Virus record (IMG/VR): IMGVR_UViG_3300048691_000224
Origin: a virus
Taxonomy: Duplodnaviria > Caudoviricetes
Reading direction: 5' to 3' (one strand)
DNA length: 64,000 bases
The notes beneath the pieces are model-generated. The model was not told the origin of the DNA. It worked only from the letters and a program-made list of their open reading frames with translations, and searched no databases. Both the position numbers and the translations under genes were made by a program. The first letter of the stretch is position 1; every line of letters begins with the position of its first letter. This document shows, piece after piece, positions 74 through 64,000 of the stretch.

Positions 74-439
74 TTGGATAAAATCATGACTACTACTATT
101 GAACACGCTGAAATTCTTGAGCGCACAATCAAATATAAGTACAACGAAGCAGACGAATTTTGTACCCAATCGCTTCACATCAAACCGACTGAAATTCAAT
201 GCCGAGAAGCCGCCCAGCGCCTGAGAGAGCTCGAGAAGGATGCAGTGCGGTATCGGTGGCTTTGCGATAAAGGTCACAGCTATCACGGCGCTGTGGCAGG
301 CACCGGCTCAATGTCTATTTGCCGTGGGCCTTACATCCTGCTTGAGCTACCATCACATAACAAATTTAGCAACATGATTTTGACAAAGCAAGCCGCCGAT
401 GTGATTATCGACAAAGCTATATCAGAGGAAGCGCAGTGA
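74..439 (+). CDS. hypothetical phage protein
   Basis: 121-aa ORF with a DAVRYRWL motif typical of small phage early proteins; stop overlaps the next start (GTGA). Confidence 0.6.
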   Translation: MDKIMTTTIEHAEILERTIKYKYNEADEFCTQSLHIKPTEIQCREAAQRLRELEKDAVRYRWLCDKGHSYHGAVAGTGSMSICRGPYILLELPSHNKFSNMILTKQAADVIIDKAISEEAQ

Positions 440-648
440 GTATTGCAAAAATACTGCAAGGTATTGACCACGATGAAATAAGTCACACAGACGGCTGGTG
501 GGAAACTTCAGCGGGTACTGAATTTGGGCGAGTAAAGCTAATCGAGGCACTGGCGTACGAGGTTGGATTGCTTACACGAATTGCTGAACTAGAGACGCGT
601 CTAGTAGAAACAATCATCATTCAACATTTAGGTACCAACAAGATATAG
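436..648 (+). CDS. hypothetical protein
   Basis: 70-aa ORF translationally coupled to the upstream ORF. Confidence 0.55.
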   Translation: MSIAKILQGIDHDEISHTDGWWETSAGTEFGRVKLIEALAYEVGLLTRIAELETRLVETIIIQHLGTNKI

Positions 649-674
649 TTCCTAGCTGAAGTGCGTATTTGTTG

Positions 675-713
675 TTGTCTTTACTCAAATATAGGGTATA
701 ATTAACCCTAAGA
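675..713 (+). promoter_or_regulatory. sigma70-type early promoter with ACCCTAAGA downstream element
   Basis: TTGTCT-16-TATAAT (675-702), then ACCCTAAGA (705-713). Confidence 0.7.
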
Positions 714-742
714 ACAACTACACGCACGCGACAACAAGAAAC

Positions 743-922
743 ATGAAACTCAAAATAGTTCAACTCAGCGCAATTATACTCAGCACTATTGTCGTCATAT
801 CAGGATATACAAGTACAGTACAACGGCAGACCATCACCATCAGTGATTCAGTTGCAATTGCGCTGATTGGTGGACTACCTGCTGCATATGTTGTTGAGCA
901 GACAACCTGCCCCACCCAATAA
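743..922 (+). CDS. small exported/membrane protein (59 aa, not in ORF track)
   Basis: Translated by hand: MKLKIVQLSAIILSTIVVISG...TTCPTQ*; sits directly after the promoter. Confidence 0.55.
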   Translation: MKLKIVQLSAIILSTIVVISGYTSTVQRQTITISDSVAIALIGGLPAAYVVEQTTCPTQ

Positions 923-926
923 CTTT

Positions 927-1181
927 ATGGCATTTGGTTATACATCAAGTGATGCTGAATCAGAACACGCACTGATTGTTGCAGAAAATGCGCTACAGGC
1001 AGTACGCCTGGAGTTGTACAATCACCATACCCACGCAGTGAACTGTCGTGAGTGCGGTGAGGAAATCCCACCAGCACGCCGCAAAGCTGCTCCAGGGTGT
1101 TATCAGTGCGTATCTTGCCGCTCGCTGTTTGAATTATCGAAAACCCGTCACACAGTGAAAATGTTAGATCGAATTTTGTAA
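927..1181 (+). CDS. TraR/DksA-family C4 zinc-finger protein
   Basis: CRECGEEIPPARRKAAPGCYQCVSC motif with acidic N-terminal helix; start moved to ATG 927. Confidence 0.85.
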   Translation: MAFGYTSSDAESEHALIVAENALQAVRLELYNHHTHAVNCRECGEEIPPARRKAAPGCYQCVSCRSLFELSKTRHTVKMLDRIL

Positions 1182-1191
1182 CAACCAACCG

Positions 1192-1231
1192 TTGACTTTA
1201 TCGCAGAATTGCTTTATAATATACCCTAAGA
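1192..1231 (+). promoter_or_regulatory. sigma70 early promoter with ACCCTAAGA element
   Basis: TTGACT-17-TATAAT (1192-1220), then ACCCTAAGA (1223-1231). Confidence 0.85.
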
Positions 1232-1256
1232 GTAAAAATAACTAGGAAAGCTCAAG

Positions 1257-1733
1257 ATGATGAAAATTGTGAATATTATTGACGGTAACCCACAAATTGC
1301 GGAAGTGCCTGATGACTACATCCGTTGCTCCATTTCCGGTGAGTTCCGCCCCCGCAGTGAGTTTTGTGACGAGAATGGTGTCCAGACTCGCACTAACTGC
1401 ACCAGTACATACCTAGCAAAGCACGCAGATAATGTGGTTCTATCTGCACGCACTGCGGATATTATGCGTGAGATGCCGTTCAAATCATTGGCCAGCCAAT
1501 TGAGTCGAGCACGCTCGCTGGAAGCAATGTCTGTGCCTATTGCGGATATGATTGCTACCCTACTAGACCTACAATCAAAAAATCCAAATACGCGCCTAGT
1601 AATGACTCAGAATGGCTACTACGCTGATGGAGACTTGGCAGACATCTACACCGTTCCGGAATTGCTCGCCAAAGTGCCAGCTTGTGGTGAGGTAGATTAC
1701 TACTCACTAGGTAGCTCATCACAAAATTATTAA
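1257..1733 (+). CDS. hypothetical protein
   Basis: 158-aa ORF after a promoter, with AGGA RBS. Confidence 0.65.
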   Translation: MMKIVNIIDGNPQIAEVPDDYIRCSISGEFRPRSEFCDENGVQTRTNCTSTYLAKHADNVVLSARTADIMREMPFKSLASQLSRARSLEAMSVPIADMIATLLDLQSKNPNTRLVMTQNGYYADGDLADIYTVPELLAKVPACGEVDYYSLGSSSQNY

Positions 1734-1786
1734 TGAACAGGATTGTTTTGTGGTAAGAGTAGAACAACTTCACACAGGGTTTACAA

Positions 1787-2032
1787 ATGGTCGATTATCT
1801 ATATTTTTGGTTGATGAAATCAGCCGCTGAGTTTTTGATTGGTGTCGGCATCTTCACTCTGATCGTACTAGTATACCTACTGGCTCAAGTACCAACGTAT
1901 TTGAGCCAGCGACGATGTGCCCACAAAACTGTACATGAAGATATGAGTTGCAACGCATGGTGTAGATCGTGCGGTAAGAATTTAGGCTTCATCGGGACAT
2001 ACAGAGCAAAGCAGCATGCTGACAAAAAGTAA
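1787..2032 (+). CDS. hypothetical membrane protein with C-terminal Cys motif
   Basis: Hydrophobic N-terminus; C-x-H...WCRSCGK. Confidence 0.55.
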   Translation: MVDYLYFWLMKSAAEFLIGVGIFTLIVLVYLLAQVPTYLSQRRCAHKTVHEDMSCNAWCRSCGKNLGFIGTYRAKQHADKK

Positions 2033-2453
2033 ATTTCACCCAGACAGTACCGTACCCAAATCGGGGATATTTGTATTTGGATCGAATCTCTCTGGCGTCC
2101 ACGGCGCTGGTGCTGCAAAAGCCGCACACAAGTACTTTGGTGCGGAGTGGGGGAATCCTCACGGTAGGCAGGGGAATAGTTACGCTATTCCCACAAAAAA
2201 TGCATCTATTTCTGCAACACTTCCATTGCCTGCCATCAGAGATTTTGTTATCGAATTTGCGCAATACGCTCTTTCCCACCCTGAGCTGGAGTTCTTCATC
2301 ACACGAGTAGCCTGTGGCTTAGCTGGGTGTAAAGATTCCCAAATCGCCCCGATGTTTAGAGATGCTGGCTGTTGTGAGTTGCAGAATTGTAGCTTCCCGA
2401 GTCCCTGGCAGCAATACTTAGTTGATGATACTCAGTCTCCAATTACACTATGA
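2016..2453 (+). CDS. conserved phage protein (IFVFGSN / A1S_2505-like family)
   Basis: IFVFGSNLSGVHGAGAAKAA, SYAIPTK and FFITRVACGLAG motifs. Confidence 0.75.
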   Translation: MLTKSKFHPDSTVPKSGIFVFGSNLSGVHGAGAAKAAHKYFGAEWGNPHGRQGNSYAIPTKNASISATLPLPAIRDFVIEFAQYALSHPELEFFITRVACGLAGCKDSQIAPMFRDAGCCELQNCSFPSPWQQYLVDDTQSPITL

Positions 2454-2998
2454 CTATGCTAACCGAACTAACCCCCAACCACATCACTGCGCTATTACGT
2501 GCTCTCCCTCAGATCAATAAAATAATTTCTGAAATTGATGCTGATCTCCAATGGCGTGATGGTGTCAACCGAGGCAGAGAGATTATAGCTGGGCTAGCAA
2601 CTGCTACCAACCAAATTCACGTGAGTCCACCACCCGCAATTGGTGAAATGTGGCGAGGCGGCATTTACGCAGGTATTAGTGTTGGTACGAAAAATCAGCC
2701 AGATAGTCACATCGTCTTGTTGACCACCACACCAGAAGATAAACTCGATTAGCAGACTAGCGTCGATTGGGCAAAAAGCTTAGGCAACGGTGCGCACGTT
2801 CCTACCCTCAGCGAATCAGCCCTGCTACATGCTAATCTACCGAATGAATTTGATGTAGATAACTGGTATTGGACTAGCACAGTATGCGAAACCAAAGCAG
2901 CTTGGATCAAGTACTTTAACGAAGATAGTCACTGTTGCACTACCTGGAAGTCTGTAGATAATTTATGCCGGGCTGTCCGCAGGCATCCAGTCTACTAA
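2450..2998 (+). pseudogene. DUF1566/Lcl-like protein interrupted by an in-frame TAG
   Basis: After TAG 2750-2752 the same frame continues for 81 codons (QTSVDWAKSLG...PTLSE...WYWTST...RAVRRHPVY*), completing the domain begun at PAIGEMWRGGIYAG. Confidence 0.7.
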
Positions 2999-3029
2999 TA
3001 ACACGACACAATTAAATTTAGGAATAAAA

Positions 3030-3257
3030 ATGCGAACAATAGTAAAACTCATGCTGGTAATTAGTATTTTGGTCACAGTTGGGTGTAACCAAATAGTTAC
3101 TGCAAAATCTATCACCGAAGCGGAGCGCTTGTGTAAAGAGTTTGGTGGGGTATACTACATACTAACTGATCCAATGTCGACGACTCGCACCAAACAATTC
3201 CATCAAGTGACTTGTATCAACGATGATTACCAATTTACATTTTCAGTCCGCCGGTAA
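3030..3257 (+). CDS. small lipoprotein-like protein
   Basis: Hydrophobic leader ending LVTVGC; AGGA RBS. Confidence 0.6.
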   Translation: MRTIVKLMLVISILVTVGCNQIVTAKSITEAERLCKEFGGVYYILTDPMSTTRTKQFHQVTCINDDYQFTFSVRR

Positions 3258-3327
3258 TCAAACATGAAACACGATCTAGAATACATTGGACTTTCCGTTC
3301 TGTAAGCTAGAGGCTCTCAATCTAGGA

Positions 3328-3333
3328 TAAATA
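3328..3333 (+). promoter_or_regulatory. T4-like late promoter core TAAATA
   Basis: TAAATA 24 nt upstream of ORF 3358. Confidence 0.55.
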
Positions 3334-3357
3334 TACGTTAGTTTAACAAGATGGAAA

Positions 3358-4056
3358 ATGAAATTACGTTACGTAATGGAGATGGTGAAAGCTTCACCAA
3401 GCTACGAGCACCTAGGTATGTTCCTAGGCAAATTCGAAGACCAGTTGCGTAAGGGGACGGACCACGTAGGTGACATCGAAGGTGTCAAAATCTACAAGGG
3501 CCTAGACCAAGGGGATGTAAATTACATTGCGTCCCATGATGGTGTGACTGTACTTGGATTCTTTATTATTACTGGTAGAAATATATTGACTACTGTATAT
3601 GTCGTACCGGAAGCTCGCATGCAGAGTTTACTTGCGATGTTCATCATGTTCCTATTCAGGGCTGAACGGATGAGTGAAATACAGATTGGTGACGATCAAA
3701 GTTTTGCAATAATCTCAGCATTGCAGCGACTAGGAACTCGATTCGCGTGCACCTGGGTTGATAAGAACACTGGTGGGAGAGTACCTTACGACCCAAAAAC
3801 AGCAATTCAATTTTATGCTATTGACGGTAAATCATCAAAATGGACCCTTGTTCTTGCTGAGCACCCACTGAGTGAAGGCAGCAGCACATTAGTATCGAGG
3901 TATTGGCACCCTGGGCGGCTGGGCACTTGGTACCACTCGGAGTTAGCTGAGGGATTCAATGACCCTCTCGAATATCAAGGTCAAGTGCTGTTCGGGTATC
4001 AATTTTTCAATCCCAACCACGAAGAATTTACAAGACCACAACAATATATCCGTTGA
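3358..4056 (+). CDS. hypothetical late protein, possible internal head protein
   Basis: 232-aa ORF behind TAAATA; L-x-E motifs (PLSEG, ELAEG). Confidence 0.6.
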   Translation: MKLRYVMEMVKASPSYEHLGMFLGKFEDQLRKGTDHVGDIEGVKIYKGLDQGDVNYIASHDGVTVLGFFIITGRNILTTVYVVPEARMQSLLAMFIMFLFRAERMSEIQIGDDQSFAIISALQRLGTRFACTWVDKNTGGRVPYDPKTAIQFYAIDGKSSKWTLVLAEHPLSEGSSTLVSRYWHPGRLGTWYHSELAEGFNDPLEYQGQVLFGYQFFNPNHEEFTRPQQYIR

Positions 4057-4311
4057 CTTTAGGTTGAACTGGCATGGTTCTAACCAAGAGACAATCATAT
4101 GCTATTTTCACCATCACTGTCGATGGAACACCAATTTTCTTTTCCTGATGAGATCACCTATAAACCAATATGACAACATTCTATTATAACAAAACAGGTG
4201 GGTTGATTAGTATCACTTGGCCACGTGGTACAGTGAAAACATTCTCTCCCCCCTGTGTATCAAGATAATAATTTCATATCAACTATTACTCACTACGACT
4301 CACTACGCAAA

Positions 4312-5160
4312 ATGATTCACGATCTACAATACATTAAACTAATTGAAACCATCTTGAGAGATGGTGAAACAAAAACAGACCGTACAGGCACAGGTACCCG
4401 CTCGATTTTTGGCTATCAAATGGTGTTCGACCTACGAGAAGGATTCCCAATCTTGACAATCAAAGAGACTCGATACAAGACAGCGTTCTTAGAGATGCTC
4501 TGGTTCCTTTCTGGGAACCACAATATTTCGTGGCTTAATGAACGAGGATCTAAATTGTGGGATCCATGGGCGGGCCCAGATGGTTCCATTGTTGGATACG
4601 GACAGATGTGGAGAGAGTGGCCACAGTATTCGCTACACTCTATCCGCCCTGATGCTGCGGTATTTGAATCCTCAAGTGTAGTGGATCAGGTGCGGGTTGT
4701 GATTGATTCTATCAAAACAAACCCCGATTCACGCCGCCATATTGTAGAAGGTTGGGACCCATCTCGTTTGGGTGACTATTCACTGCCACCATGTCATAAA
4801 ATGCACCAGTTGTATTGCACCAACGATAATCAGTTGGACCTCCAGGTATACGTCAGATCAAATGATATTGGATTGGGTGCCCCATTCAACATCGCTCAAT
4901 ATGCACTATTGCTGAGCTTATACGCCCAGTGTACTGGTAGGACACCACGCAAGTTAATTTACACCATTGGTGATGCGCACATATACGAAAATCACATTCC
5001 TCAATTGAGTGCTTGGCTACAAACATATAAACCTGTAGAATGTACTCCACGTCTGGTTATTTCTAATCCTACTACTGATATCGATTCATTTCAAATGAGC
5101 GACTTCACGATTACTGGATACGAGTGTAACCCTTTCCTAAAACTTCCAATTGCGGTATAA
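4312..5160 (+). CDS. thyA: thymidylate synthase (ThyA type)
   Basis: DRTGTGT, LPPCH catalytic motif, RSNDIGLGAPFNIAQY, GDAHIYENH; ATG 4312 preferred to GTG 4255. Confidence 0.97.
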   Translation: MIHDLQYIKLIETILRDGETKTDRTGTGTRSIFGYQMVFDLREGFPILTIKETRYKTAFLEMLWFLSGNHNISWLNERGSKLWDPWAGPDGSIVGYGQMWREWPQYSLHSIRPDAAVFESSSVVDQVRVVIDSIKTNPDSRRHIVEGWDPSRLGDYSLPPCHKMHQLYCTNDNQLDLQVYVRSNDIGLGAPFNIAQYALLLSLYAQCTGRTPRKLIYTIGDAHIYENHIPQLSAWLQTYKPVECTPRLVISNPTTDIDSFQMSDFTITGYECNPFLKLPIAV

Positions 5161-5165
5161 CCCAT

Positions 5166-5288
5166 ATGAACTACATCAAAAAATTAGCTAACCAACTCTA
5201 CTTCTGGTACCAAACAGAACCGACAGCACCATCCACAATAGGCATGGTTGCCATGGTGATCGTGATGGCCGTATTAATCCTAGCTTAA
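5166..5288 (+). CDS. small membrane peptide (40 aa, not in ORF track)
   Basis: MNYIKKLANQLYFWYQTEPTAPSTIGMVAMVIVMAVLILA*; fills the gap between thyA and smpB exactly. Confidence 0.55.
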   Translation: MNYIKKLANQLYFWYQTEPTAPSTIGMVAMVIVMAVLILA

Positions 5289-5292
5289 AGAT

Positions 5293-5733
5293 ATGATAAA
5301 AGCGCCCCTTGATTGGAAGTATAGTGTAATTGAACGCCAACAGGTGGGTCTGGTGCTGACTGGTGAACAGGTTAAACAGTTTGCAGCGAACAAAGTGTCG
5401 ATAGTCGGCGCCCGAGTGGTATTTCAATCAAGTGGTTCAGGGGCGGTCACGGGGTTCTCATTCCATGGAGTGGAGACTCAAGAATCAATCAAGATCCTCG
5501 CCCACAAAAAACAACTTGTGTCGTGGCAATCGAAAGGCGTTAAAAACGGCATGACGTGGATGGTAGCGGAAGTTGAGCAAATCAACGGCAAATTCAAAGC
5601 AATCATCGCATTATGTAGGGGCAAAAAACTTCAAGATGTTCGTGCTGATAGTAAGGCCAAAACCGTCGATAAGATGATTGCCAACACTATGAAGACCAAA
5701 GTAAAATCACCAAGCTCTTACAGCACTAAATAG
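5293..5733 (+). CDS. smpB: divergent SsrA-binding protein (SmpB-like)
   Basis: Colinear with SmpB: KY...VGLVLTGEQVK (cf. EY...AGLALQGWEVK), KILAHKKQL (cf. KLLLNQREL), KAIIALCRGKKLQDVR (cf. KVKIGVAKGKKQHDKR). Confidence 0.85.
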   Translation: MIKAPLDWKYSVIERQQVGLVLTGEQVKQFAANKVSIVGARVVFQSSGSGAVTGFSFHGVETQESIKILAHKKQLVSWQSKGVKNGMTWMVAEVEQINGKFKAIIALCRGKKLQDVRADSKAKTVDKMIANTMKTKVKSPSSYSTK

Positions 5734-5760
5734 TGCTCTTCTAAGTTATTCCTATATAAA

Positions 5761-6414
5761 ATGTCCCACACAACTACTGGATTAGGTCCAGCAATCATCT
5801 ATGTCCACGGCGCTTTCGCCTCACGTCAGTCCATGCCGCTCAATTACTACAAAGTAAATTTGAAGCACTACGACGGGTTTGATTTCACCTACGATTGGAA
5901 CACACCAACTGATCAAGTTGGTGTCGCCCTGTCTGAATTTATCAACACGCAGATTCCTAACGCAGAGGTATTCATCATTGGACACTCTCTTGGTGGCAAT
6001 GTAGCACTACACTCTGCATTGCACATTGCACAACATGACATACGAAACAGTGCAGGGCATAGAAAAATTAAGCACATATTTACTGTCGGCAGTCCGCTAG
6101 GCGGAAGTAAAGCAGCACTGCTATTGAAGTATGGTTATAACGCCCCAGAGGTATTTTCTCACATCACACCCAACAATCCCAATATCACAGCCCTGCGGCG
6201 GTGGAGTGGGGTACCAGTGACAAGCTTTGTCACTACAAAAGGGGTCCATTCAAAATGGATGCAGCAGAATGATGGTGTAGTAACGGTAGCTTCTCAAAAA
6301 GCAGTTGGTTACCCAACCTATATTGAGGTTGATTGCGGCCACATGGAAGTGTTATTATCCGATGCTGTAGTGAATACCATATCATCAACAATCCAAGGCT
6401 ACAATGAAACTTGA
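5761..6414 (+). CDS. alpha/beta-hydrolase (lipase/esterase-like)
   Basis: VHGA oxyanion strand, GHSLGG nucleophile, NDGVV, GHMEVL. Confidence 0.85.
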   Translation: MSHTTTGLGPAIIYVHGAFASRQSMPLNYYKVNLKHYDGFDFTYDWNTPTDQVGVALSEFINTQIPNAEVFIIGHSLGGNVALHSALHIAQHDIRNSAGHRKIKHIFTVGSPLGGSKAALLLKYGYNAPEVFSHITPNNPNITALRRWSGVPVTSFVTTKGVHSKWMQQNDGVVTVASQKAVGYPTYIEVDCGHMEVLLSDAVVNTISSTIQGYNET

Positions 6415-7123
6415 TCCAAATTCAGTCGACTCGATCCGCACAATTGCTGGATTCACCAAAGTATTCGACATTGAAACACTATTACTGTCTACGGACCACA
6501 CGGTTGCTGTCGATGCGGCTCCTACGCTTGTGATATTCTTCGATCTCAAAACTACGTATACTGGCCCATCACTCGGCCTCGTTCGCTTGAAGGTGTTGGA
6601 ACAAAGGTTGTCCCAACCAGCATCATCAGTTGAGATCATTGAAAACTCTCAGGGTAAACCAACGTCCATCAAGTTGAAGAGCGGCCGCAGCGCCCTTGAT
6701 TTCAAGTTAGCTAATGAGAAGCTGACAACACGGCTGCCGAAAGCCTTTGCGGGCAAGTTTGCTCACACACTTGCTGTGAGTAATCATGACCTCGTTGAAC
6801 TAGTGAAGGGTGCACGGTTAATCGACTCGAAGGTAATGATGTTCAAAAGCACCGGTGGTGAGATTGAGGTATCTGGATCTAGCGAATCAGAATCATTTAC
6901 GATTACACTGGATCCGACCGTCACAAAACCATCTACAGACTTCGTGTATACATATTCAACTGCTCACTTAGCTGGGTTGTCAAAATTACAACAATCGCTA
7001 CCGGGATTTACTCTCACTGACGTGTTCATGGTACAGTTGACTGCTAATGGTCAGTTGGCAACAACAGTAAAAACAGATAACATAGCAGCGCAAATATTTT
7101 TAATGGATATAAAAAACAGATGA
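6404..7123 (+). CDS. putative DNA sliding clamp (T4 gp45-like)
   Basis: 239 aa; MKL-start and alternating strand/helix pattern like gp45; next to RNase H; clamp loaders present in the window. Confidence 0.6.
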   Translation: MKLDPNSVDSIRTIAGFTKVFDIETLLLSTDHTVAVDAAPTLVIFFDLKTTYTGPSLGLVRLKVLEQRLSQPASSVEIIENSQGKPTSIKLKSGRSALDFKLANEKLTTRLPKAFAGKFAHTLAVSNHDLVELVKGARLIDSKVMMFKSTGGEIEVSGSSESESFTITLDPTVTKPSTDFVYTYSTAHLAGLSKLQQSLPGFTLTDVFMVQLTANGQLATTVKTDNIAAQIFLMDIKNR

Positions 7124-7560
7124 TTTCAAGTATTACTAAATGGTTCGGAACTGCAAAAGTTGTCGAAATGCAAGGTGGGTTGTTGAAGAAGCAACAAGAG
7201 TTGCTATCTGCACAATCCATGGAGATTCATAATCTTAGAGCAGAATTTACCGCTTTGAAACACAGTGTGCCAGAGCTAATTTCTCTTAGCATTAGTGAAA
7301 CTAATGCTGTAGTCGAAACAGAGAAAGCCACCACTCGTGACAGTGCCAAGAATGGGTCAAAGCCTTGGGTGGAAATTATATCTGATGATTATGATACAGA
7401 GAAGGGGCTGGGGCTGCAGTTGGATTGGAACGATGCATTCGTCAAGGAACTGAGATCGAAGGGATTTTCAGGTGCTACTGATTATGCAATTGTGAATTCT
7501 TGGCTTGTGGCCCTCCACAAACAAATGGGAGAAGGCGCTAACGATGGTTCGGGTCTATGA
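7120..7560 (+). CDS. conserved myophage hypothetical protein
   Basis: PWVEII...LDWNDAFVKELRSKGF motif. Confidence 0.65.
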   Translation: MISSITKWFGTAKVVEMQGGLLKKQQELLSAQSMEIHNLRAEFTALKHSVPELISLSISETNAVVETEKATTRDSAKNGSKPWVEIISDDYDTEKGLGLQLDWNDAFVKELRSKGFSGATDYAIVNSWLVALHKQMGEGANDGSGL

Positions 7561-7979
7561 CTCAACCTACCACCGTGGTAGACGATGCTGACATTACCAC
7601 ACCCTTTCAGTACTTCTCTCGATATAGAACTCTCAGCGCCGAGGACCATCCTGCTTGGATGGTTGGGTTAAGGAGTGGCAATATTAATTCCATCCATGTT
7701 CACGCTCACAGTCAGAGTAGCGAAAACTCGGAACTGTATTTTCAAGTTGACTTAAATGGTGTTGATTACCCCGAGGCTCTTGAGTTGGATTCTGACCCAA
7801 TGTGTGCTCTAGGATATCTGTACATTCACTCCCCTTGGCAGCCCGTAATCGAAATGTTGACAATCGCAAATGCTCGTAACTTGAGTGAGCGAGCAACAAC
7901 TCAGATTGAGGGTCTAATAAATTATCTTCACGCCGTCGGTAAATTACACCCCAACTTCTATATTTTAAAACACACTTAA
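7557..7979 (+). CDS. hypothetical protein
   Basis: 140-aa ORF coupled by ATGA overlap. Confidence 0.6.
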   Translation: MTQPTTVVDDADITTPFQYFSRYRTLSAEDHPAWMVGLRSGNINSIHVHAHSQSSENSELYFQVDLNGVDYPEALELDSDPMCALGYLYIHSPWQPVIEMLTIANARNLSERATTQIEGLINYLHAVGKLHPNFYILKHT

Positions 7980-7983
7980 TACA

Positions 7984-9003
7984 ATGACACCCATCGAGCC
8001 TCAGGTTGATAATTTAATTTTTGATGTGTCAGGTATGATCTACCGGACATTCCATGCGTCTAAAAAAGCCCCAGTGTATCGCCGTAGAAACTTTCTCGAC
8101 GAAGGTACGCCCGAGCAAGATGTTGATGGTGGTATTGGAATTGCCATGCACGCCGCCCTTCAATCAATGAACAAATACACCAAACAGTTCAGGCCTCGAA
8201 GAGTGATTGCTTGTTTTGACCGACCGAACAACTGGCGCAAACTCTATATGAAGTCAAGTGCAGCAATATCGAAGTTACCATACAAGGGTCAACGCCGTCA
8301 GAATCAGACTCCAGCTCAAGCGAAAGAGTTTGCAGAGTTAATAGACCACATGGTTCAATTTGAGCAGATGTTGAGAGACGAAACGGGAATCATCACCCTA
8401 GCCGCCAACAAACTTGAAGCTGATGATTGTATTGCTGGCTTTGTACAGATGTTTCCAACTGAGCGCAACATCATTATGACCAACGACTCTGATATGACTC
8501 AACTTACCACAGAGTATACAACAGTGTGCAATTTCACATCAGGAAAACTTATTGAGTGTGAAGATCCGAACTATTTCCTGTTTGAGAAGGCCATGAGGGG
8601 CGATAAGTCCGACAATATCTTAAACATCTTACCTGGCATTCGCTCTACAAAGTTACAGAAAGCTTGGGAATCCCCATACGACATGGCTAATTTGATGAGT
8701 GAGGTAGTCGTGCACCTAGGTGGCCCTGCTACTTTATTGGACGATAACACTACTGACAGTTCCCCGACTACCGCACCTGTGCTCGTCGGCCAGTTGTTAG
8801 AAGAGAATATGCTGCTGATGGATCTGACAAAACAGCCAGAGGTAATTAAACAATTGATGGTTGATACGATTACTGCTGACCTTGCACGGACTAGAGCCTA
8901 TAATTTTTGGAAGATCTCAACATTCTGCACTAAGCACAAGTTAAATCGAATTGTAGAAGACCTCAAGAACTTCAGGCCACTATTTTCAGGAGGATACAAA
9001 TGA
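7984..9003 (+). CDS. rnh: 5'-3' exonuclease / T4-type RNase H (FEN family)
   Basis: IFDVSG, ACFD, PYKGQR, EADD, TNDSDMTQL, GDKSDNI. Confidence 0.92.
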   Translation: MTPIEPQVDNLIFDVSGMIYRTFHASKKAPVYRRRNFLDEGTPEQDVDGGIGIAMHAALQSMNKYTKQFRPRRVIACFDRPNNWRKLYMKSSAAISKLPYKGQRRQNQTPAQAKEFAELIDHMVQFEQMLRDETGIITLAANKLEADDCIAGFVQMFPTERNIIMTNDSDMTQLTTEYTTVCNFTSGKLIECEDPNYFLFEKAMRGDKSDNILNILPGIRSTKLQKAWESPYDMANLMSEVVVHLGGPATLLDDNTTDSSPTTAPVLVGQLLEENMLLMDLTKQPEVIKQLMVDTITADLARTRAYNFWKISTFCTKHKLNRIVEDLKNFRPLFSGGYK

Positions 9004-9288: not shown

Positions 9289-11550
9289 TTAGGGAATAGC
9301 AAATGTTTTGACAAATACGTGAGTACCACAATCATATATTTTGTGGTATCCGTTATTGTGCATATTGACCGCCTCTGTGAGGTTGGGATCGAATACCGCC
9401 AGCATTTTCGATAACTTGTGTTTTTGGAACTGGGTGCGGTTAAATCGCTTTGTGTAATTCCCACCATCCCCTTTAGTGGATTTGACGTACTGATATGCTG
9501 GTTTGCTGGAGTGCAATAGTGTGAATCCGAGAGCGTTGTACAACCCTCCTGTCGAGTAACGTCTATCGGCATATGATATTATGCTGGTGGGCTTGTACTC
9601 GGTTGAGAAGTGTGATAGTAGTTTAGCTGCACCACCGACGATTTGTGTGTTGAGTTTTGTGCAAAATCTATACATTTCATACTCATAATTTTTGTTAAAC
9701 CTCGATTTGCCAAAAGTCATTACAGCCGTTAGTTTGTTGTCGTACATCAGTCCTAATCGGACAGAACTTGAATCAGCCCCTTGAATGTGGTTGGCAGCTA
9801 AAAATTGATTACACTCAGTGGCCGTTAGTTGCACAACCTGGCACTTACGAGCATATACCCTAACTTCGAATATTCCCAACTTAGCATTGATCACTGATTT
9901 AACAATATCTGATTTATTGTCCCATTCATCTTCAAACACGTGGAGTAGCTGGACCCCCGCTGCTTCACACGCTAGTGTCTTGTTTAGGTGATACCCAGCA
10001 TCAATTTTCGTGTAGTTGTGTACACTGTGCCAAAATAATCCATTGAACTCTATAGCTACTGATTTATCTGGGATAAACACGTCTAGCTCGCGAGGCGCTA
10101 TTATTTTTCTGGTATTTTCAACAAATTTAATATGATTTGACGCCAAGTGTTCTGTAATCTGCTTTTCCTTTCTGTTTCTACCTCCAAACAATGGATAACA
10201 TGTCAGACATCTTGGGGTACTACCATCCATCAACATCGATAAGAAACCAGTACTACAATCGACACACTTGTATGGCATCGGTTCTGTTCGGTGTGTATAA
10301 TCACCGACTTCATATTCGGGAGTTATTTGATTAGAAATGTTCTCCATCCGGTTCGGCCACCACCTATCGATCCTGGTCTTCTGGGCGCGCTCAGCGATCG
10401 CCGCAACCTTTTGGATTTCCCCAAAATTTGAAACTCCATATTTGTCTGCTAAAGTAGATTTAACTTTGGCTTGGATGATGGGGCTAGAACCAGCGCGCTC
10501 GCTACCATAATTTTCCAACATGTGAGCTCGAATGTTCTCGGATATAGTGGGATCGTGTAAAGGTGTGATCGCTCCATATCTAGCTAAACAGGTTTCATTT
10601 TTACGTTGCTTGACATCTGAATTTCTCGCAGAAGTAATATCTCCATACTTCTCCATGCACGTGGCCAATCTTTTTGCTTCCACCTCGGGGTGCCGACTTC
10701 GGCACGTGGGTGAGCACCAGGGTAAGAATGTTGCCTTATTGCTACTCCACAACACTTCTGTAGCATTACATACTCCACAACACTTCGCCGGCCCCGACGG
10801 CCGAATCCTAGCATCTCTTGCCAGCTCTCGACCAGTCTGTTTAACTAACTGAGCTAATCGCTTCTTCTCCACTTCGCGCTGCTTTCGTTCGTGGGTCTTT
10901 GCTAGTTTATCCTCTTTTGTCTTTTTGTGAGTATCGTGCTGATCAGCCATGTAATCTCGCCCAGTTCGAACCCAGTAAATTCGCTCTTTTAGCTGATAAG
11001 CTTCTGGAAGGTGCTTAGTCATATCTTTGATTTTGTTATACTCAGCTCGATACTTTGGTGCAAAAGTACGCATGTCAAACTTTGAATCCAATGAAGCAAG
11101 GACCAACCTAACTTGAGATTCGCTGCACACAACGTTTTGTCGTGTACTTGCCGCACACTCTACTGAGCACGTCGTTCGCCACCTACCACCCACTGATGTC
11201 CATATTACTGGTTTATCGCAAGATGGTACTGAGCACGTCGGCGGCTTCCCATGTAGTGGAGCCTTCTGAGCAGCGATCCAGCGGGCAGAGCAAGTCATCC
11301 CACAAAATTTCCTGTAGTTTTGTGTGACGATGTCCCATTTCACACTATTAGTGCAATTTGCACATTTTGGTATGGCAAAGCAACTATTCCAAAAATGCCA
11401 CAATCGTTGTGTGGAAGAAACTCCTGGAGGCAGAAATTCAGTAGTATCTACAATGTACTCATACGCTTCTGGGTATTTCTTGGGTAAATGCGTTGTTTTC
11501 GTTGTTTTATATTCTTCTAATATATTGGTAAAATTGGGGATGTGTGTCAT
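9289..11550 (-). mobile_element. free-standing Hef-like homing endonuclease gene (PD-(D/E)xK type)
   Basis: ELDVFIPDKSVAIEFNGLFWHS core; three Cys-rich repeats; four ...KYG/RYG repeats; C-terminal YADRRYS.G and IYDCG module; opposite strand to its neighbours. Confidence 0.85.
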
Positions 11551-26377: not shown

Positions 26378-27205
26378 ATGAGTGATTTACAAACAATCTT
26401 AGAATGCGTAAGCACGCAATTTGGTATCGCAACTGGTAATGCTATCAAAGCAGAAATCAGCAATTTAGTTGGTATGCAAAATGTTGACTTGACAGCAATT
26501 AATGCTGCAATCACACAGATCAATGCTCTTTTGGATACTGATCCAGAAACAGCTGGCGTCCAGTTTAATGCTGCTTCGTTGATCGCACAGTTGACCGACT
26601 TGGGTTCACGTTTGACCACACTTGAGAATAGTGAAGTTGTTCAGAACTTGACAGTCATCATCAACCAAATCGATACTTCATTGACTGCTGAAGTTACCCG
26701 CGCTCAAGCTGCTGAAGCTGCATTGGGTGAACAAATCACCACCATCAACGGTACAATCGCCACATTGACTACTCAATTGGCTGCATTGGAAGCCTCTGGT
26801 GGTTCAGGTGGTTGTGATTGTGCACAGATCGCTAGCGATATCTCTGCTCTTCAAACAGCCGTAACAAATTTGCAAGCAACTGATGCAGGAACAGCTACTC
26901 AAGTAGCTGGGATCCAAGCTCAATTGGCAACTTTGGCATCTGATATCGCAACGGCTACAGCTGCCGCTGCTGCTGCTAGTGCTTCTGCTGCTGCTGCTCA
27001 AACAGCCGCCGCTGCAGCTTCCGCAGCTGTTGCCACATTGGCGACAGCCGTCGGTGAATTGGACACACGTGAAAACGAGCGTCACAATGGCCACGGTGGT
27101 AGACTGAATAGTATCGAAGGCAAAATGAATGCCATCGAAGCTATCGACTGTACAGCCTTGGCTGCTTTGTTCTCAGCAGGTATCACAAGCGGCTTGGCTG
27201 CTTAA
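26378..27205 (+). CDS. Ala-rich coiled-coil virion fibre protein
   Basis: Heptads (LTAEVTRAQAAEAAL), GGSGGCDC hinge, poly-Ala tract; strong RBS; own terminator. Confidence 0.7.
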   Translation: MSDLQTILECVSTQFGIATGNAIKAEISNLVGMQNVDLTAINAAITQINALLDTDPETAGVQFNAASLIAQLTDLGSRLTTLENSEVVQNLTVIINQIDTSLTAEVTRAQAAEAALGEQITTINGTIATLTTQLAALEASGGSGGCDCAQIASDISALQTAVTNLQATDAGTATQVAGIQAQLATLASDIATATAAAAAASASAAAAQTAAAAASAAVATLATAVGELDTRENERHNGHGGRLNSIEGKMNAIEAIDCTALAALFSAGITSGLAA

Positions 27206-36984: not shown

Positions 36985-37476
36985 TTACATAATCAAGTCA
37001 GCTGGGCACATATTCTTCAAGAATTTTTGCCAAAAGTCGATGGGTGAAATCAATATCCATTTAGTTGGAGAGATTGCAATGCACATAACCTGATGTTTAG
37101 TTAGCGATGGATAGAAGAATGTGCGAGCTTGATCAAAATTAACGATGCGGTACCCACTATCCATTACAGTGTGATGTGTCGGGCCAACAACAAATAACTT
37201 AAAATTGCTATTGGTCAACTCATGTACCTTGATTACATCCATAGTACAAGTCGCCTTGTCACATACAATGACGTGCCAATCTACAGGCAGGTGAATCATG
37301 TTACCACCGATCTCTAAAGTAATAGAGGATGATTGCATTTCTACCCCGACGGTAATTGGTGAACAGAAATAGTCAAGGTGTTTAAGGTTATAATTCCAAA
37401 AACCATCAGACACAGCTTTCAAGTCACTAAGTGTGGAAATTGGTCGAGGAGTATCAAGTTTATCTAGTAGAATCAT
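36985..37476 (-). CDS. conserved beta-rich hypothetical protein
   Basis: Directly downstream of uvsW; start moved to ATG 37476. Confidence 0.6.
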   Translation of the reverse strand: MILLDKLDTPRPISTLSDLKAVSDGFWNYNLKHLDYFCSPITVGVEMQSSSITLEIGGNMIHLPVDWHVIVCDKATCTMDVIKVHELTNSNFKLFVVGPTHHTVMDSGYRIVNFDQARTFFYPSLTKHQVMCIAISPTKWILISPIDFWQKFLKNMCPADLIM

Positions 37477-37531
37477 GTGTGCTTTAGTTTGAATCGTAAA
37501 TGTTAGTATACATCGGTGTAGTATTAGGTCA

Positions 37532-38965
37532 CTACTCGCCAGCATACCTTACTTTTTTCACAGTGCACGGGTAGCGTGCATCTGTGTAATATTTTTGCCT
37601 TTGCCGCCCATGAGAAGCGCCAAATGAGTAATTGGTACCGATGTCATACAAGTTCACGTGCGTTTTGTCATGGGCCATTCTCAACCCACGCCCAATTGCC
37701 TGCACCACTCGTGTAAACGACTTGCCAATATCAATCAACCCCAAATTAAATACACGATCGATACTCAATCCTGTACCAGCAATTTGAACATTGGCGATAA
37801 CAATAATGTTATCCTGAGTCTCAAACAAATCATAGGCAACTCGGCGGTCCTTTTCTTTGTCTTGGCCGTATAAGAATGTACAGCGATCTCTACCGATAAT
37901 ATCAGCAATTAACTTACCTTGTTTGACAGATGATACCAGGATTAGTGTATTACCACTTTCGCTGGTATTAACTATGAACTCTGATATGTAATCATTTCTG
38001 TCACTATCGAGAATCAGTGCTTTTTTCTCAAAATCATATTCTGAGAAAACATTTGCCTTTGGATCGTGGGTGTCTTGCAACACCATCTGAGTAATCTGAA
38101 TGGTGGCGAGTAGTCCTTGATCCATGAGGGTAGAGGCTTCAATTGTATAAACAACATCTGATCCCATGCCTGCAATCACTGTGCGCTTATCAGACTCATC
38201 TTTGGGTAGTGTTCCTGTACATCCAATCCTCACTGGAATGTTCGCGCCGTGCTTAATCAACAATTTTTGAAGTACTTCACCCTTCGCGCCATGAACCTCA
38301 TCACATATGATGGCCTGAAATCCTCCACCAGATATAATTTCTGGGTGATTCTTCAGCGCTTGCCAGGTGGAGATCACGTGATCGTGTTCCAGATCCTTTG
38401 TCTTACCTGAGTACGAACCAACATCAAGTCCTACGGCGGCGTAAGATTTGACCGTCTGATTGATCAGTGTGACACTCGGAACAATTACTATAGATCGAAA
38501 CCCAACATCCTGGTAGACTTTGCTTAGTGCTGCACAGATATACGTCTTACCAGCACCAGTGCTTGCTAAGATAATACCCTTGTGGTGATTATCAATAATA
38601 GCATTCACTGCCTCTACCTGGTGCTTCCTCAATGTTATACCATATTGTGAGAATATAGATTCATTGATTTGAGCAATGTCCAGGTCAAGTGTACCACGTT
38701 GATCGTTGAGTTTGAGTTTGTACCCGAATCGTTGGATCGCTACTATGACTGTGGGTAGAAATGCTTGGTACGTTCTACCAGCTGTGGTAAAGAATGCTAC
38801 CTTGCCGTCCCACCGCCCAAGCTTAAACAGTGGCATGTACTTGTAACCAGGAACATAGAAGCTATTATTTTTAACCAACACATCAGTGTGCTCTGGAGTA
38901 AGACCACTCAGAGTGCAAGTCACTTCATCTTTAATGGTTACAGTACAGATTCGTTGGTTTTCCAT
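37532..38965 (-). CDS. uvsW: UvsW-like SF2 DNA helicase
   Basis: WDGK, LRKHQ, STGAGKT, DEVH, GCTGT, QAIGRGLR. Confidence 0.92.
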   Translation of the reverse strand: MENQRICTVTIKDEVTCTLSGLTPEHTDVLVKNNSFYVPGYKYMPLFKLGRWDGKVAFFTTAGRTYQAFLPTVIVAIQRFGYKLKLNDQRGTLDLDIAQINESIFSQYGITLRKHQVEAVNAIIDNHHKGIILASTGAGKTYICAALSKVYQDVGFRSIVIVPSVTLINQTVKSYAAVGLDVGSYSGKTKDLEHDHVISTWQALKNHPEIISGGGFQAIICDEVHGAKGEVLQKLLIKHGANIPVRIGCTGTLPKDESDKRTVIAGMGSDVVYTIEASTLMDQGLLATIQITQMVLQDTHDPKANVFSEYDFEKKALILDSDRNDYISEFIVNTSESGNTLILVSSVKQGKLIADIIGRDRCTFLYGQDKEKDRRVAYDLFETQDNIIVIANVQIAGTGLSIDRVFNLGLIDIGKSFTRVVQAIGRGLRMAHDKTHVNLYDIGTNYSFGASHGRQRQKYYTDARYPCTVKKVRYAGE

Positions 38966-46070: not shown

Positions 46071-46619
46071 CTAAATGGTTAGTTGGGATTTAACGAGAGT
46101 TACGTGATCAGATGTCAAGAATCTCAATCCAGGATTGACGTGGTTCACAAGTAAGGTTCGGCTATCAAGTTCACCTGCTGCTGTGGGGTTTCTGTGGTCA
46201 ATCAAACCAGTCCCTGAGTTAGTGTCATCAAGCACAAAGTACGATTGTGGGGTAGCAAGCTGATCAGAGTACTCCAAGAGCCACGTATTGATTCGATCAC
46301 GGCGGGTCGGTACTACAGGCTTACACGAAAATGTCAGTTCGGGGTAGATTACCGTCTGGGGAAAGTGTCGACTCAAAACTTCATTGAGTACTTTCCGAGT
46401 AGCATACTTGATCCAGCTCGTACTGAGTACAATGACTGGTGCCAGATCAGCGTCACGCAAGTGATAGATCAGTTCGTATACAGCATTGACGGATGTAGAA
46501 TTGAATACAAAGTTTTCGCGCAACCAGTATGTAGACTTGAGCTGCACCGGTCGATTTTGATTCGCTGGTTCGATAAGCACATCATCGAAGTCTAAAAATA
46601 TTGCAAATTTATCAACCAT
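46071..46619 (-). CDS. HAD-superfamily phosphatase (Swiss-army-knife RNA repair HAD type)
   Basis: IFLDFDDVL, VLSTSW, R..RI..WL, YFVLDD. Confidence 0.75.
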   Translation of the reverse strand: MVDKFAIFLDFDDVLIEPANQNRPVQLKSTYWLRENFVFNSTSVNAVYELIYHLRDADLAPVIVLSTSWIKYATRKVLNEVLSRHFPQTVIYPELTFSCKPVVPTRRDRINTWLLEYSDQLATPQSYFVLDDTNSGTGLIDHRNPTAAGELDSRTLLVNHVNPGLRFLTSDHVTLVKSQLTI

Positions 46620-59084: not shown

Positions 59085-59504
59085 CTATTCATCTAATTTT
59101 CGACATGCGTGAGAGGTGAGTTCACTCAACACTAATAAATTGGGTAACCTGAACGCAAGTGTATCCCTAAAACCCATTCTGACACCTGACTCGACGACAG
59201 CACCTGAGCGGCTGATTCCAGCAGTGCACTGAACAACGAGATTGGTATCAGTATTCAGAGCACTAATTAAAATGTCGACGAGTGCTTCTGCTTGATCGCT
59301 CGAAATCCTACTAGGTTCGGTACTCCCATCAACATCAGCGAATATAACTTCATGTACTTCGTTAAAGTGTTCCAATAGGGCTGGGTATGTTCGTAAGTCT
59401 TCTTCTCTATCTACTATCCGAATGAGTGTAGTCTTACCAGGAACCAAGAAATGAAATCCATCACGCACAGCTGTATGGGAAATGTTGACTATCCACGGTT
59501 TCAT
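59085..59504 (-). CDS. tyrosine/dual-specificity phosphatase-like protein
   Basis: F.DVD, VQCTAGISRS (CX5R), PN. Confidence 0.82.
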   Translation of the reverse strand: MKPWIVNISHTAVRDGFHFLVPGKTTLIRIVDREEDLRTYPALLEHFNEVHEVIFADVDGSTEPSRISSDQAEALVDILISALNTDTNLVVQCTAGISRSGAVVESGVRMGFRDTLAFRLPNLLVLSELTSHACRKLDE

Positions 59505-63101: not shown

Positions 63102-63443
63102 TTACACACATTCGGTATATGTTCGTAAAATATATTCTCTCGCCATACGATATGAACCGCCATGATAATCGCGAAGATCCACAACATCTATACCCAAATA
63201 TTGCACATAATATTCTAGCGTAGCAATATCAATCTTTATACCCTTCTTTGCCTGCTCGGGTGATTGCGCCCAAACATATTGGTAAGTTCCAGAATATTTT
63301 AACCCAAATAAACGAGATATAAATTTGGATTCATATTCCAGTTTATCTTTGCGTTCAGCCTCAGCTTCATCGATCATCCGCTTTTCATATTGTTTTGCGC
63401 GAAAACGAAGCCAAGGTAAAATGTGTTCGATTTTTACTTTCAT
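63102..63443 (-). CDS. hypothetical protein
   Basis: 113-aa ORF. Confidence 0.55.
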   Translation of the reverse strand: MKVKIEHILPWLRFRAKQYEKRMIDEAEAERKDKLEYESKFISRLFGLKYSGTYQYVWAQSPEQAKKGIKIDIATLEYYVQYLGIDVVDLRDYHGGSYRMAREYILRTYTECV

Positions 63444-64000
63444 AATGTTACCGGTATATCTCCATAAATTAGTACATGTTCTGGATTTACTAATGTCACC
63501 AAAATCGGTAGATCTAGTTCAACAACTTTTGATCTAAAAACTGGGCTAGATGGTCGCTTGTCTGCTGGAATTTTACTCAGAGTAACTTCATCTAGTTCAA
63601 CTTCAAAAACTTTGCGTTGAACATATGTACCTCGCTTAAAGAAAATTGGGTAATCAGCCCATTGGATGCTCTTGCTCTCCAGCATTTCGAGTTTCTCAGA
63701 AGAATTCTTCTTATGTAGCTCTGCTTGTGAAAAGTATTCATGCGCTGCCATTGAGATTGAATTTTTTGTGGCGTCTTGTTCACGCCACAAAAAATTCAGA
63801 TATACATTCCGCAGTGTTGGCACTTGCCACATTCGGCAGTCGAATGTAGGCAGTAAATTAGATTTCTCAGGAATATATGTATTCAATGAATGATTGAAAT
63901 ATGCAGTCGCCATTGCAGCTAGTGTTGATACCAGCTTCTGATACTTGCCATCAAACATATACTCCGAAGAAGATTCATAATCGTGATACCAACACAGTGT
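63440..64000 (-). CDS. tRNA(His) guanylyltransferase Thg1-like 3'-5' polymerase (5'-truncated by the window edge)
   Basis: Frame open to base 64000 (TLCWYHDYESSSEYMFDGKYQKL); PTFDCR, WREQDATKNSISMAA, FKRG. Confidence 0.88.
   Translation of the reverse strand, partial: TLCWYHDYESSSEYMFDGKYQKLVSTLAAMATAYFNHSLNTYIPEKSNLLPTFDCRMWQVPTLRNVYLNFLWREQDATKNSISMAAHEYFSQAELHKKNSSEKLEMLESKSIQWADYPIFFKRGTYVQRKVFEVELDEVTLSKIPADKRPSSPVFRSKVVELDLPILVTLVNPEHVLIYGDIPVTL

Follow-up and report, generated by a model that had tools for sequence, protein, structure and literature searches.

A strongly divergent SmpB homologue in a large-genome phage and its possible role in phage-supplied trans-translation

Genes for tmRNA are common in phages, and genes for SmpB are rare. 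On tmRNA's tRNA-like domain, SmpB occupies the position that the D and anticodon stems would fill (PMC3968760). In the E. coli protein, residues G132, K133, D137, R139, K143 and K156 contact 16S rRNA or form the hinge, and the L90-L92 patch stacks on tmRNA G19 (PMC8363625). H136 (Y126 in T. thermophilus) stacks on G530 and activates EF-Tu, and in an H136A mutant EF-Tu GTP hydrolysis is drastically slower (PMC4151336). The same mutation leaves peptidyl transfer possible, and single changes in the DKR motif that follows H136 have marginal effects (PMC8363625, PMC4151336). On the phage side, two-piece (circularly permuted) tmRNA genes have been described in aquatic phages such as Melnitz (PMC9004378), and SmpB in huge phages is listed in one sentence of Al-Shayeb et al., 2020 (PMC7162821). 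Our literature search returned no paper that brings together SmpB, tmRNA and jumbo phage, and none beyond PMC7162821 for megaphage. Among 50,697 phage records, the SmpB matches in complete, very large phage genomes belonged to the Lak phages and two huge-phage assemblies; the other matches that we inspected were host genes at prophage ends, as in E. coli phage 500465-1, or lay on short unannotated fecal contigs.

Here, we describe an smpB-like gene of an uncultured freshwater jumbo phage, taken from a 64,000-nt stretch of DNA (hereafter the window), which amounts to only about a fifth of a genome of roughly 300 kb. The window is phage DNA, encoding a head-decoration/structural protein, a DNA helicase, a UvsX-like recombinase and a nucleotidyltransferase. 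The best matches of its RecA/UvsX protein, at 37-43% identity, are to the jumbo phages Xoo-sp13, XacN1, CM1/RAS14 and RsoM2USA, whose genomes measure 309-385 kb. Three IMG/VR fragments that carry relatives of the smpB product are 54-110 kb long and rated 20-32% complete, and their genomes would therefore be ~270-350 kb. On a matching contig that extends past the window, gene calls within 10 kb of the window end include an IS605 OrfB/TnpB-like (Cas12f-like) protein of 408 aa, a dCMP deaminase and an HD_4 alarmone-hydrolase-like protein. Within the window itself, about 90 nt at 26942-27039 match unrelated hairpin families below the Rfam threshold on each strand (isrG at 30.3 bits, E 3e-4, and two miRNA precursors), which suggests a long hairpin inside or beside the ORF at 26378-27205.

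The smpB-like gene lies on the plus strand at 5293-5733, stop codon included, and encodes a protein of 146 aa (P0001). It is housed in a tight co-directional gene row (4255-9003), in which it is preceded by thymidylate synthase (4255-5160; Pfam, 295.7 bits) and a 40-codon ORF (5166-5288) and followed by a lipase-3/alpha-beta hydrolase (5761-6414), three ORFs without a family and a 5'-3' exonuclease (7984-9003). A scan for promoters and terminators around smpB gave no signal above shuffled expectation.

A first-pass annotation made from the letters of this DNA had called the product a phage-encoded, divergent SmpB that matches its bacterial counterparts end to end, and each part of that description is borne out. 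Residues 8-134 align with positions 9-142 of the 143 positions of the Pfam SmpB profile PF01668 (E 3.3e-14, 53.4 bits; gathering cut-off 27 bits), and the protein also matches PHROG 6791, a family without assigned function. In a sequence search of solved structures, all matches at E < 0.01 were SmpB chains. The annotation had allowed for the SmpB fold being missing; the AlphaFold2 model, built on 138 homologues, is instead confident (mean pLDDT 91) and has the expected strands, two body helices and a C-terminal helix at residues 113-138, and when it was compared with the PDB by Foldseek, ranks 1-21 were all SmpB (E 5.8e-8 to 2e-3, TM up to 0.86), the best match outside SmpB having E 0.13. The OB-like closed beta-barrel with flanking helices is present in the model, and with a pI of 10.08 and a net charge of +14 (+7 in the body, +7 in the tail) the protein equals E. 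coli SmpB in basic charge. Its divergence is evident from the NCBIfam equivalog models, as it scores under half of either cut-off (TIGR00086, 53.7 vs 119.1; NF003843, 51.1 vs 130). The product of 5293-5733 is a genuine SmpB homologue by Pfam and by fold, though no NCBIfam equivalog.

Scores of other SmpBs give the scale of this divergence. Against TIGR00086, E. coli SmpB (reference sequence from the host gene contained in a prophage record) scores 182 bits, the SmpB of a 735-kb phage 181.4 and that of Lak-A1 182.5, and across TIGR00086 and NF003843 together these three range from 178 to 222; three other metagenomic SmpBs with a short loop score 105-132 and three relatives of the window protein (P0003, P0004 and P0005) 52-65. 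When 1.84 billion cluster representatives were searched exhaustively with HMMER, only 157 proteins were retrieved at E <= 1e-3 and only five at E <= 1e-10. A maximum-likelihood tree built from 144 sequences groups the window protein with seven relatives (two IMG/VR loci, one JGI locus and P0002-P0005) in a single clade (SH-aLRT 97) whose stem measures 0.45 substitutions per site. The mean distance to E. coli SmpB is 3.09 for the clade and 1.92 +/- 0.35 for the other tree sequences, all of which had been chosen as best matches of the query (the nearest 138 representatives, no taxon labels). The clade is a separate, long-branched and well-supported lineage, carried on jumbo-phage fragments. No match was returned by megablast of 4 kb against the phage collection or by a single-protein scan of IMG/VR with the window SmpB, and a scan of genome contigs found no relative; an exact 46-mer from the gene does not occur in IMG/VR. 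A tblastn search of phage records with the window protein gave six weak matches; comparable matches obtained with another SmpB (P0008) include host smpB genes within prophage records. One further candidate phage SmpB (P0012) was left uncounted, its contig encoding EF-G, Cpn10 and tRNAs and possibly belonging to a bacterium with a small genome. On a JGI contig with a clade member at 35% identity (L009), 17 tRNA genes occupy the 8 kb upstream of smpB (positions 85-7822).

The low family scores, together with the loss of several conserved motifs described below, could be taken to mean that a host smpB was once captured and that what is left of it is decaying and without function. We find this scarcely credible. 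Against its counterpart on an ENA contig (L051), a variant with 97% identity, the window gene has 20 synonymous and 5 non-synonymous differences, giving a dN/dS of 0.06, and the gene is thus under strong purifying selection. The frame is intact, several independent contigs carry members of the clade, with identities as low as 36%, and the confident structural model likewise speaks against decay. An identical protein is encoded by 17 contigs, among them contigs from four JGI samples with the same neighbours. The sequence is also found in RNA libraries: freshwater metatranscriptome contigs from three studies span most of smpB at 90-99% identity, covering 5170-5501 and 5542-6023 in one case (X2) and 5391-5901 in another (X3), where gaps in the cover are uninformative. 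Since DNA carry-over is possible in such libraries, this is weak evidence of transcription; the RNA runs that hold the sequence are labelled freshwater metagenome.

At ~25% identity to E. coli SmpB, the window protein is conserved unevenly along its length. Its body (residues 1-109; 5293-5619, plus strand) comprises the beta-barrel and the two helices of the AlphaFold2 model, as supported by alignment to E. coli SmpB, and its C-terminal tail (residues 110-146; 5620-5730, plus strand) is 37 residues long and contains the predicted C-terminal helix. The annotation had noted that the GKK-x-x-D-x-R motif of the tail is retained, and indeed R109-G-K-K-L-Q-D-V-R117 aligns with K131-G-K-K-Q-H-D-K-R139 of E. 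coli, so that a basic tail with a D-x-R motif follows the glycine hinge. With the E. coli equivalents in brackets, the residues kept in the hinge and tail are G110 (G132), K111/K112 (K133/K134), D115 (D137), R117 (R139), K121 (K143), K123 (R145), M133 (M155) and K134 (K156), and those kept in the body are Y10 (Y24), G19 (G33), K28 (K42) and K102 (K124); the hydrophobic L90-L91-L92 patch is kept as I68-L69-A70. Six of these (G110, K111, D115, R117, K121 and K134) do not vary among clade members, even at 36% identity. Because the hinge, the tail contacts and the patch are kept, we take the tail directed at the ribosomal channel and the main patch for tmRNA to be under constraint.

Several other conserved SmpB contacts have been abandoned. 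At the N-terminus, the N-[KR]-[KR]-A motif, whose Asn is conserved in at least 90% of the 138 homologues, is absent (N17-K18-R19 is replaced by K3-A4-P5). The central loop is shortened, as the annotation had also seen: a gap of nine columns relative to E. coli follows H58, and the loop counts 26 residues, against 33-34 in 71 of the 138 aligned homologues, which makes it ~8-9 residues shorter. The affected segment (residues 58-66, H-G-V-E-T-Q-E-S-I; 5464-5490, plus strand) takes with it D83-P-x-R86-x-R88, in whose place stand E-T-Q-E-S-I and then K. Among the single altered residues, a class that the annotation had likewise mentioned, E31 has become Q17, K138 V116 and W147 V125; H22 is W8, so that an aromatic is retained. 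The aromatic before DKR is missing, E. coli H136 being Q114 here and V, A or F in relatives from the clade, and the middle Lys of DKR, V116 in the window protein, is Lys in P0003-P0005.

These losses bear on one use that the annotation had proposed for the protein, namely that of a dominant-negative. Such a decoy would bind host tmRNA or the ribosomal A site, leave rescue incomplete and so shut down trans-translation in the host. The replacement of the H136 aromatic, K138 and W147 could be expected of a protein of this kind, given the effect of H136A on EF-Tu GTP hydrolysis (PMC4151336), as could the loss of the N-terminal motif and the DPxRxR segment and the long branch of the clade. However, H136A allows peptidyl transfer and single DKR changes are marginal in effect, and the residue at position 136 varies in the clade (Q, V, A, F), so its loss is not one fixed inactivating change. 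The hinge Gly and the Lys/Arg contacts to rRNA along the whole tail are clade-invariant. On account of this conservation, we disfavour the dominant-negative and regard it as quite improbable.

If the protein is instead a working SmpB, it would need an RNA partner. The annotation had recognised no tmRNA in the window, and our searches agree: none was found by ARAGORN, with introns allowed and at default stringency, or with Rfam release 15, which covers the permuted tmRNA families RF01850 and RF04321, at gathering score and at E <= 5. At relaxed threshold, ARAGORN returned 12 'tmRNAs' in the window without a recognisable tag and 17 'intron tRNAs', all of which we judged spurious. The three IMG/VR fragments with clade members also show no tmRNA, an absence that says little because they are only 20-32% complete. 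In two of the sequences searched (G002 and G003), the matches to RF00023 and RF01850 were tRNA-sized pieces of 17-110 nt, far below cut-off.

Among the cultured relatives, XacN1 (AP018399.1) has a beta-type two-piece tmRNA in two copies, at 37177-37596 and 355972-356391, which match RF01850 with identical scores (107.8 bits each; cut-off 84) and are present twice probably because they lie within long terminal repeats. RsoM2USA has one beta-type two-piece tmRNA (RF01850, 92 bits). No match to PF01668 was found in the four complete genomes of XacN1, Xoo-sp13, RsoM2USA and RAS14. From this we conclude that the lineage carries the RNA and that the window's subgroup adds the protein, and also that a phage can keep its tmRNA without an SmpB gene of its own, which counts against the phage-supplied pair proposed below. 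Both components are present in Lak-A1, which has SmpB and a one-piece tmRNA (54 bits).

Furthermore, smpB and a permuted tmRNA occur side by side in other phages. On three contigs of uncultured origin and phage-like gene content (L053, L054 and L055), two of which also carry tRNA arrays, a permuted tmRNA lies 0-550 nt downstream of a short-loop smpB. On L053, smpB is at 3952-4380 and the tmRNA at 4932-5333 (RF04321, 97.6 bits, and ARAGORN, tag ANDELYGEVLLAA); on L054, they are at 10001-10435 and 10828-11076 (RF04321, 52.1 bits); and on L055, at 2374-2826 and 2809-3224, where the permuted tmRNA was called by ARAGORN only and has no Rfam match at gathering score. The L055 tmRNA encodes a 30-residue tag. 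On L053, a gene for a DSP-type phosphatase lies between smpB and tmRNA and overlaps the tmRNA call. The recurrence of an smpB-then-permuted-tmRNA layout suggests a mobile two-gene module. These contigs resemble the window phage in their phage-type contexts and in the shortened central loop of SmpB (27 residues in L053, about 27 in L054 and 32 in L055; usually 33-34). They differ in that their SmpBs score 122-132 bits, passing or nearly passing the equivalog cut-off, and keep H or F before DKR where the window protein has Q114; moreover, their smpB adjoins a tmRNA, whereas the window smpB has none beside it and its product is much more derived.

It could be argued from the same arrangement, a window smpB without a neighbouring tmRNA, that the phage protein serves host tmRNA only, raising or replacing the host's supply of SmpB during infection. 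Such a supply could matter, as SmpB acts in a complex with tmRNA and regulates how RNase R degrades this RNA (PMC3968760), and the conserved tail and hinge would suit it. However, the divergence of the protein exceeds what plain supply would need (53.7 bits against TIGR00086, where the megaphage and E. coli proteins reach 181-182), the related phages XacN1 and RsoM2USA carry a tmRNA of their own, and smpB is physically linked to permuted tmRNA in other phages. We therefore hold host tmRNA as the sole client to be distinctly unlikely.

Another RNA to be considered lies within the window. The annotation had drawn attention to an odd tRNA at 54590 and to its lack of G3-U70, and both observations stand: with introns allowed (-i), ARAGORN calls a tRNA-Ser(CGA) on the minus strand, c[54590,54691], with a 25-nt insert after position 39, and the pair at positions 3 and 70 is U3-A70. 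Default ARAGORN and the Rfam tRNA model both miss this RNA. Its acceptor stem is 7 bp long and contains a single A-C mismatch; a D stem, a 5-bp anticodon stem and a good T arm are present, CCA is encoded, the short variable region is of class I, and the folding energy is ordinary (z -1.1). The annotation had floated a link between this RNA and SmpB, and one may extend the idea by supposing that the SmpB fold has been re-used for another tRNA-like RNA of the phage, such as 54590-54691, in a role apart from tmRNA. The divergence is indeed strongest on the RNA-facing parts of the body (the N-terminal motif, the loop and E31Q), and the genome is rich in tRNA-like RNAs. Yet conservation in the protein is highest in the ribosome-directed tail, and the 54590 RNA brings D and anticodon stems of its own, exactly where SmpB would sit (PMC3968760). 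Nothing ties smpB to this RNA, which is 49 kb away and on the opposite strand. Re-use of the fold in this manner is, in our opinion, very unlikely, and the link to the 54590 tRNA finds no support.

Based on these observations, we propose that the window gene encodes a functional, if strongly derived, SmpB, the protein half of a trans-translation pair supplied by the phage, a reading that we think somewhat probable. In our model, the body of the protein would bind the elbow of tmRNA's tRNA-like domain, replacing the D and anticodon stems. Its basic C-terminal tail would then sample the vacant mRNA channel of a ribosome that has stalled, allowing the nascent chain to pass to tmRNA, and, hinging at G110, would follow the tmRNA through the ribosome. 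The likeliest RNA partner would be the phage's own two-piece (circularly permuted) tmRNA, presumably encoded elsewhere in the roughly 300-kb genome; we name it as the likeliest client because of the tmRNA evidence from XacN1 and RsoM2USA, L053-L055 and Lak-A1. Host tmRNA may be a second client. The annotation had listed among its options a phage RNA encoded elsewhere as partner, and, in the light of the XacN1 and RsoM2USA tmRNAs and the smpB-tmRNA neighbours on L053-L055, this option seems the best supported. The phage would thus bring both halves of the trans-translation core, and ribosomes could be recycled after cleavage of mRNAs by the phage's nucleases or the host's anti-phage RNases.

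A role in freeing ribosomes would fit the RNA-repair-type genes that are found nearby on the minus strand, which encode a HAD_SAK_2 domain protein (46071-46619), an RNA ligase with a PHA02142 OB domain (51244-52326), a DSP/Tc-R-P phosphatase (59085-59504) and Thg1 (63440-64000, running off the window end). A comparable set on L053 consists of PTH2, YqeY, HD_4 and a phosphatase. What speaks against the pair, judged from the protein sequence, is the failure to reach the equivalog cut-offs and the loss of the H136-type aromatic, K138, W147, the N-terminal motif and DPxRxR. The partnership might also be private, in which case a stripped-down SmpB (short loop, no N-terminal motif, no H136-type aromatic) would have co-evolved with the phage's two-piece tmRNA as an orthogonal pair insulated from host SmpB and host tmRNA. 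Such a pair would work on host ribosomes, would route rescue to a tag of the phage's choosing and would continue to do so when host components are depleted or attacked. We regard this stricter arrangement as unlikely.

The clade also provides a natural test of how much SmpB can lose with its tail contacts still under selection; the parts lost are the flexible central loop, the motif at the N-terminus and the aromatic that stacks on G530. If the protein does work with a phage two-piece tmRNA, a phage can carry a complete ribosome-rescue core, and its compact SmpB/tmRNA pair would be useful for asking which contacts are essential.

In comparison with known systems, the window protein most likely represents a rare SmpB variant and not a new system. 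Like bacterial SmpB (PF01668, TIGR00086; PDB 7AC7/6Q97 from E. coli and 1WJX/4V8Q from T. thermophilus), it has the SmpB fold and a similar length and basic charge, but it lacks the full-length loop, N-K/R-K/R-A, DPxRxR and H136 of the bacterial protein. It shares with the SmpBs of huge phages and megaphages (LR756501 of the 735-kb phage, LR756502 and the Prevotella Lak phages) a very large phage genome with many translation genes. In contrast to the window protein, these megaphage SmpBs are near-canonical, scoring 181-182 bits against TIGR00086 and having a full-length loop, NKKA and Y-DKR. Finally, XacN1 and RsoM2USA have the RNA half of the same pathway (RF01850) without an SmpB gene, and it is the protein half that the window's phage adds.
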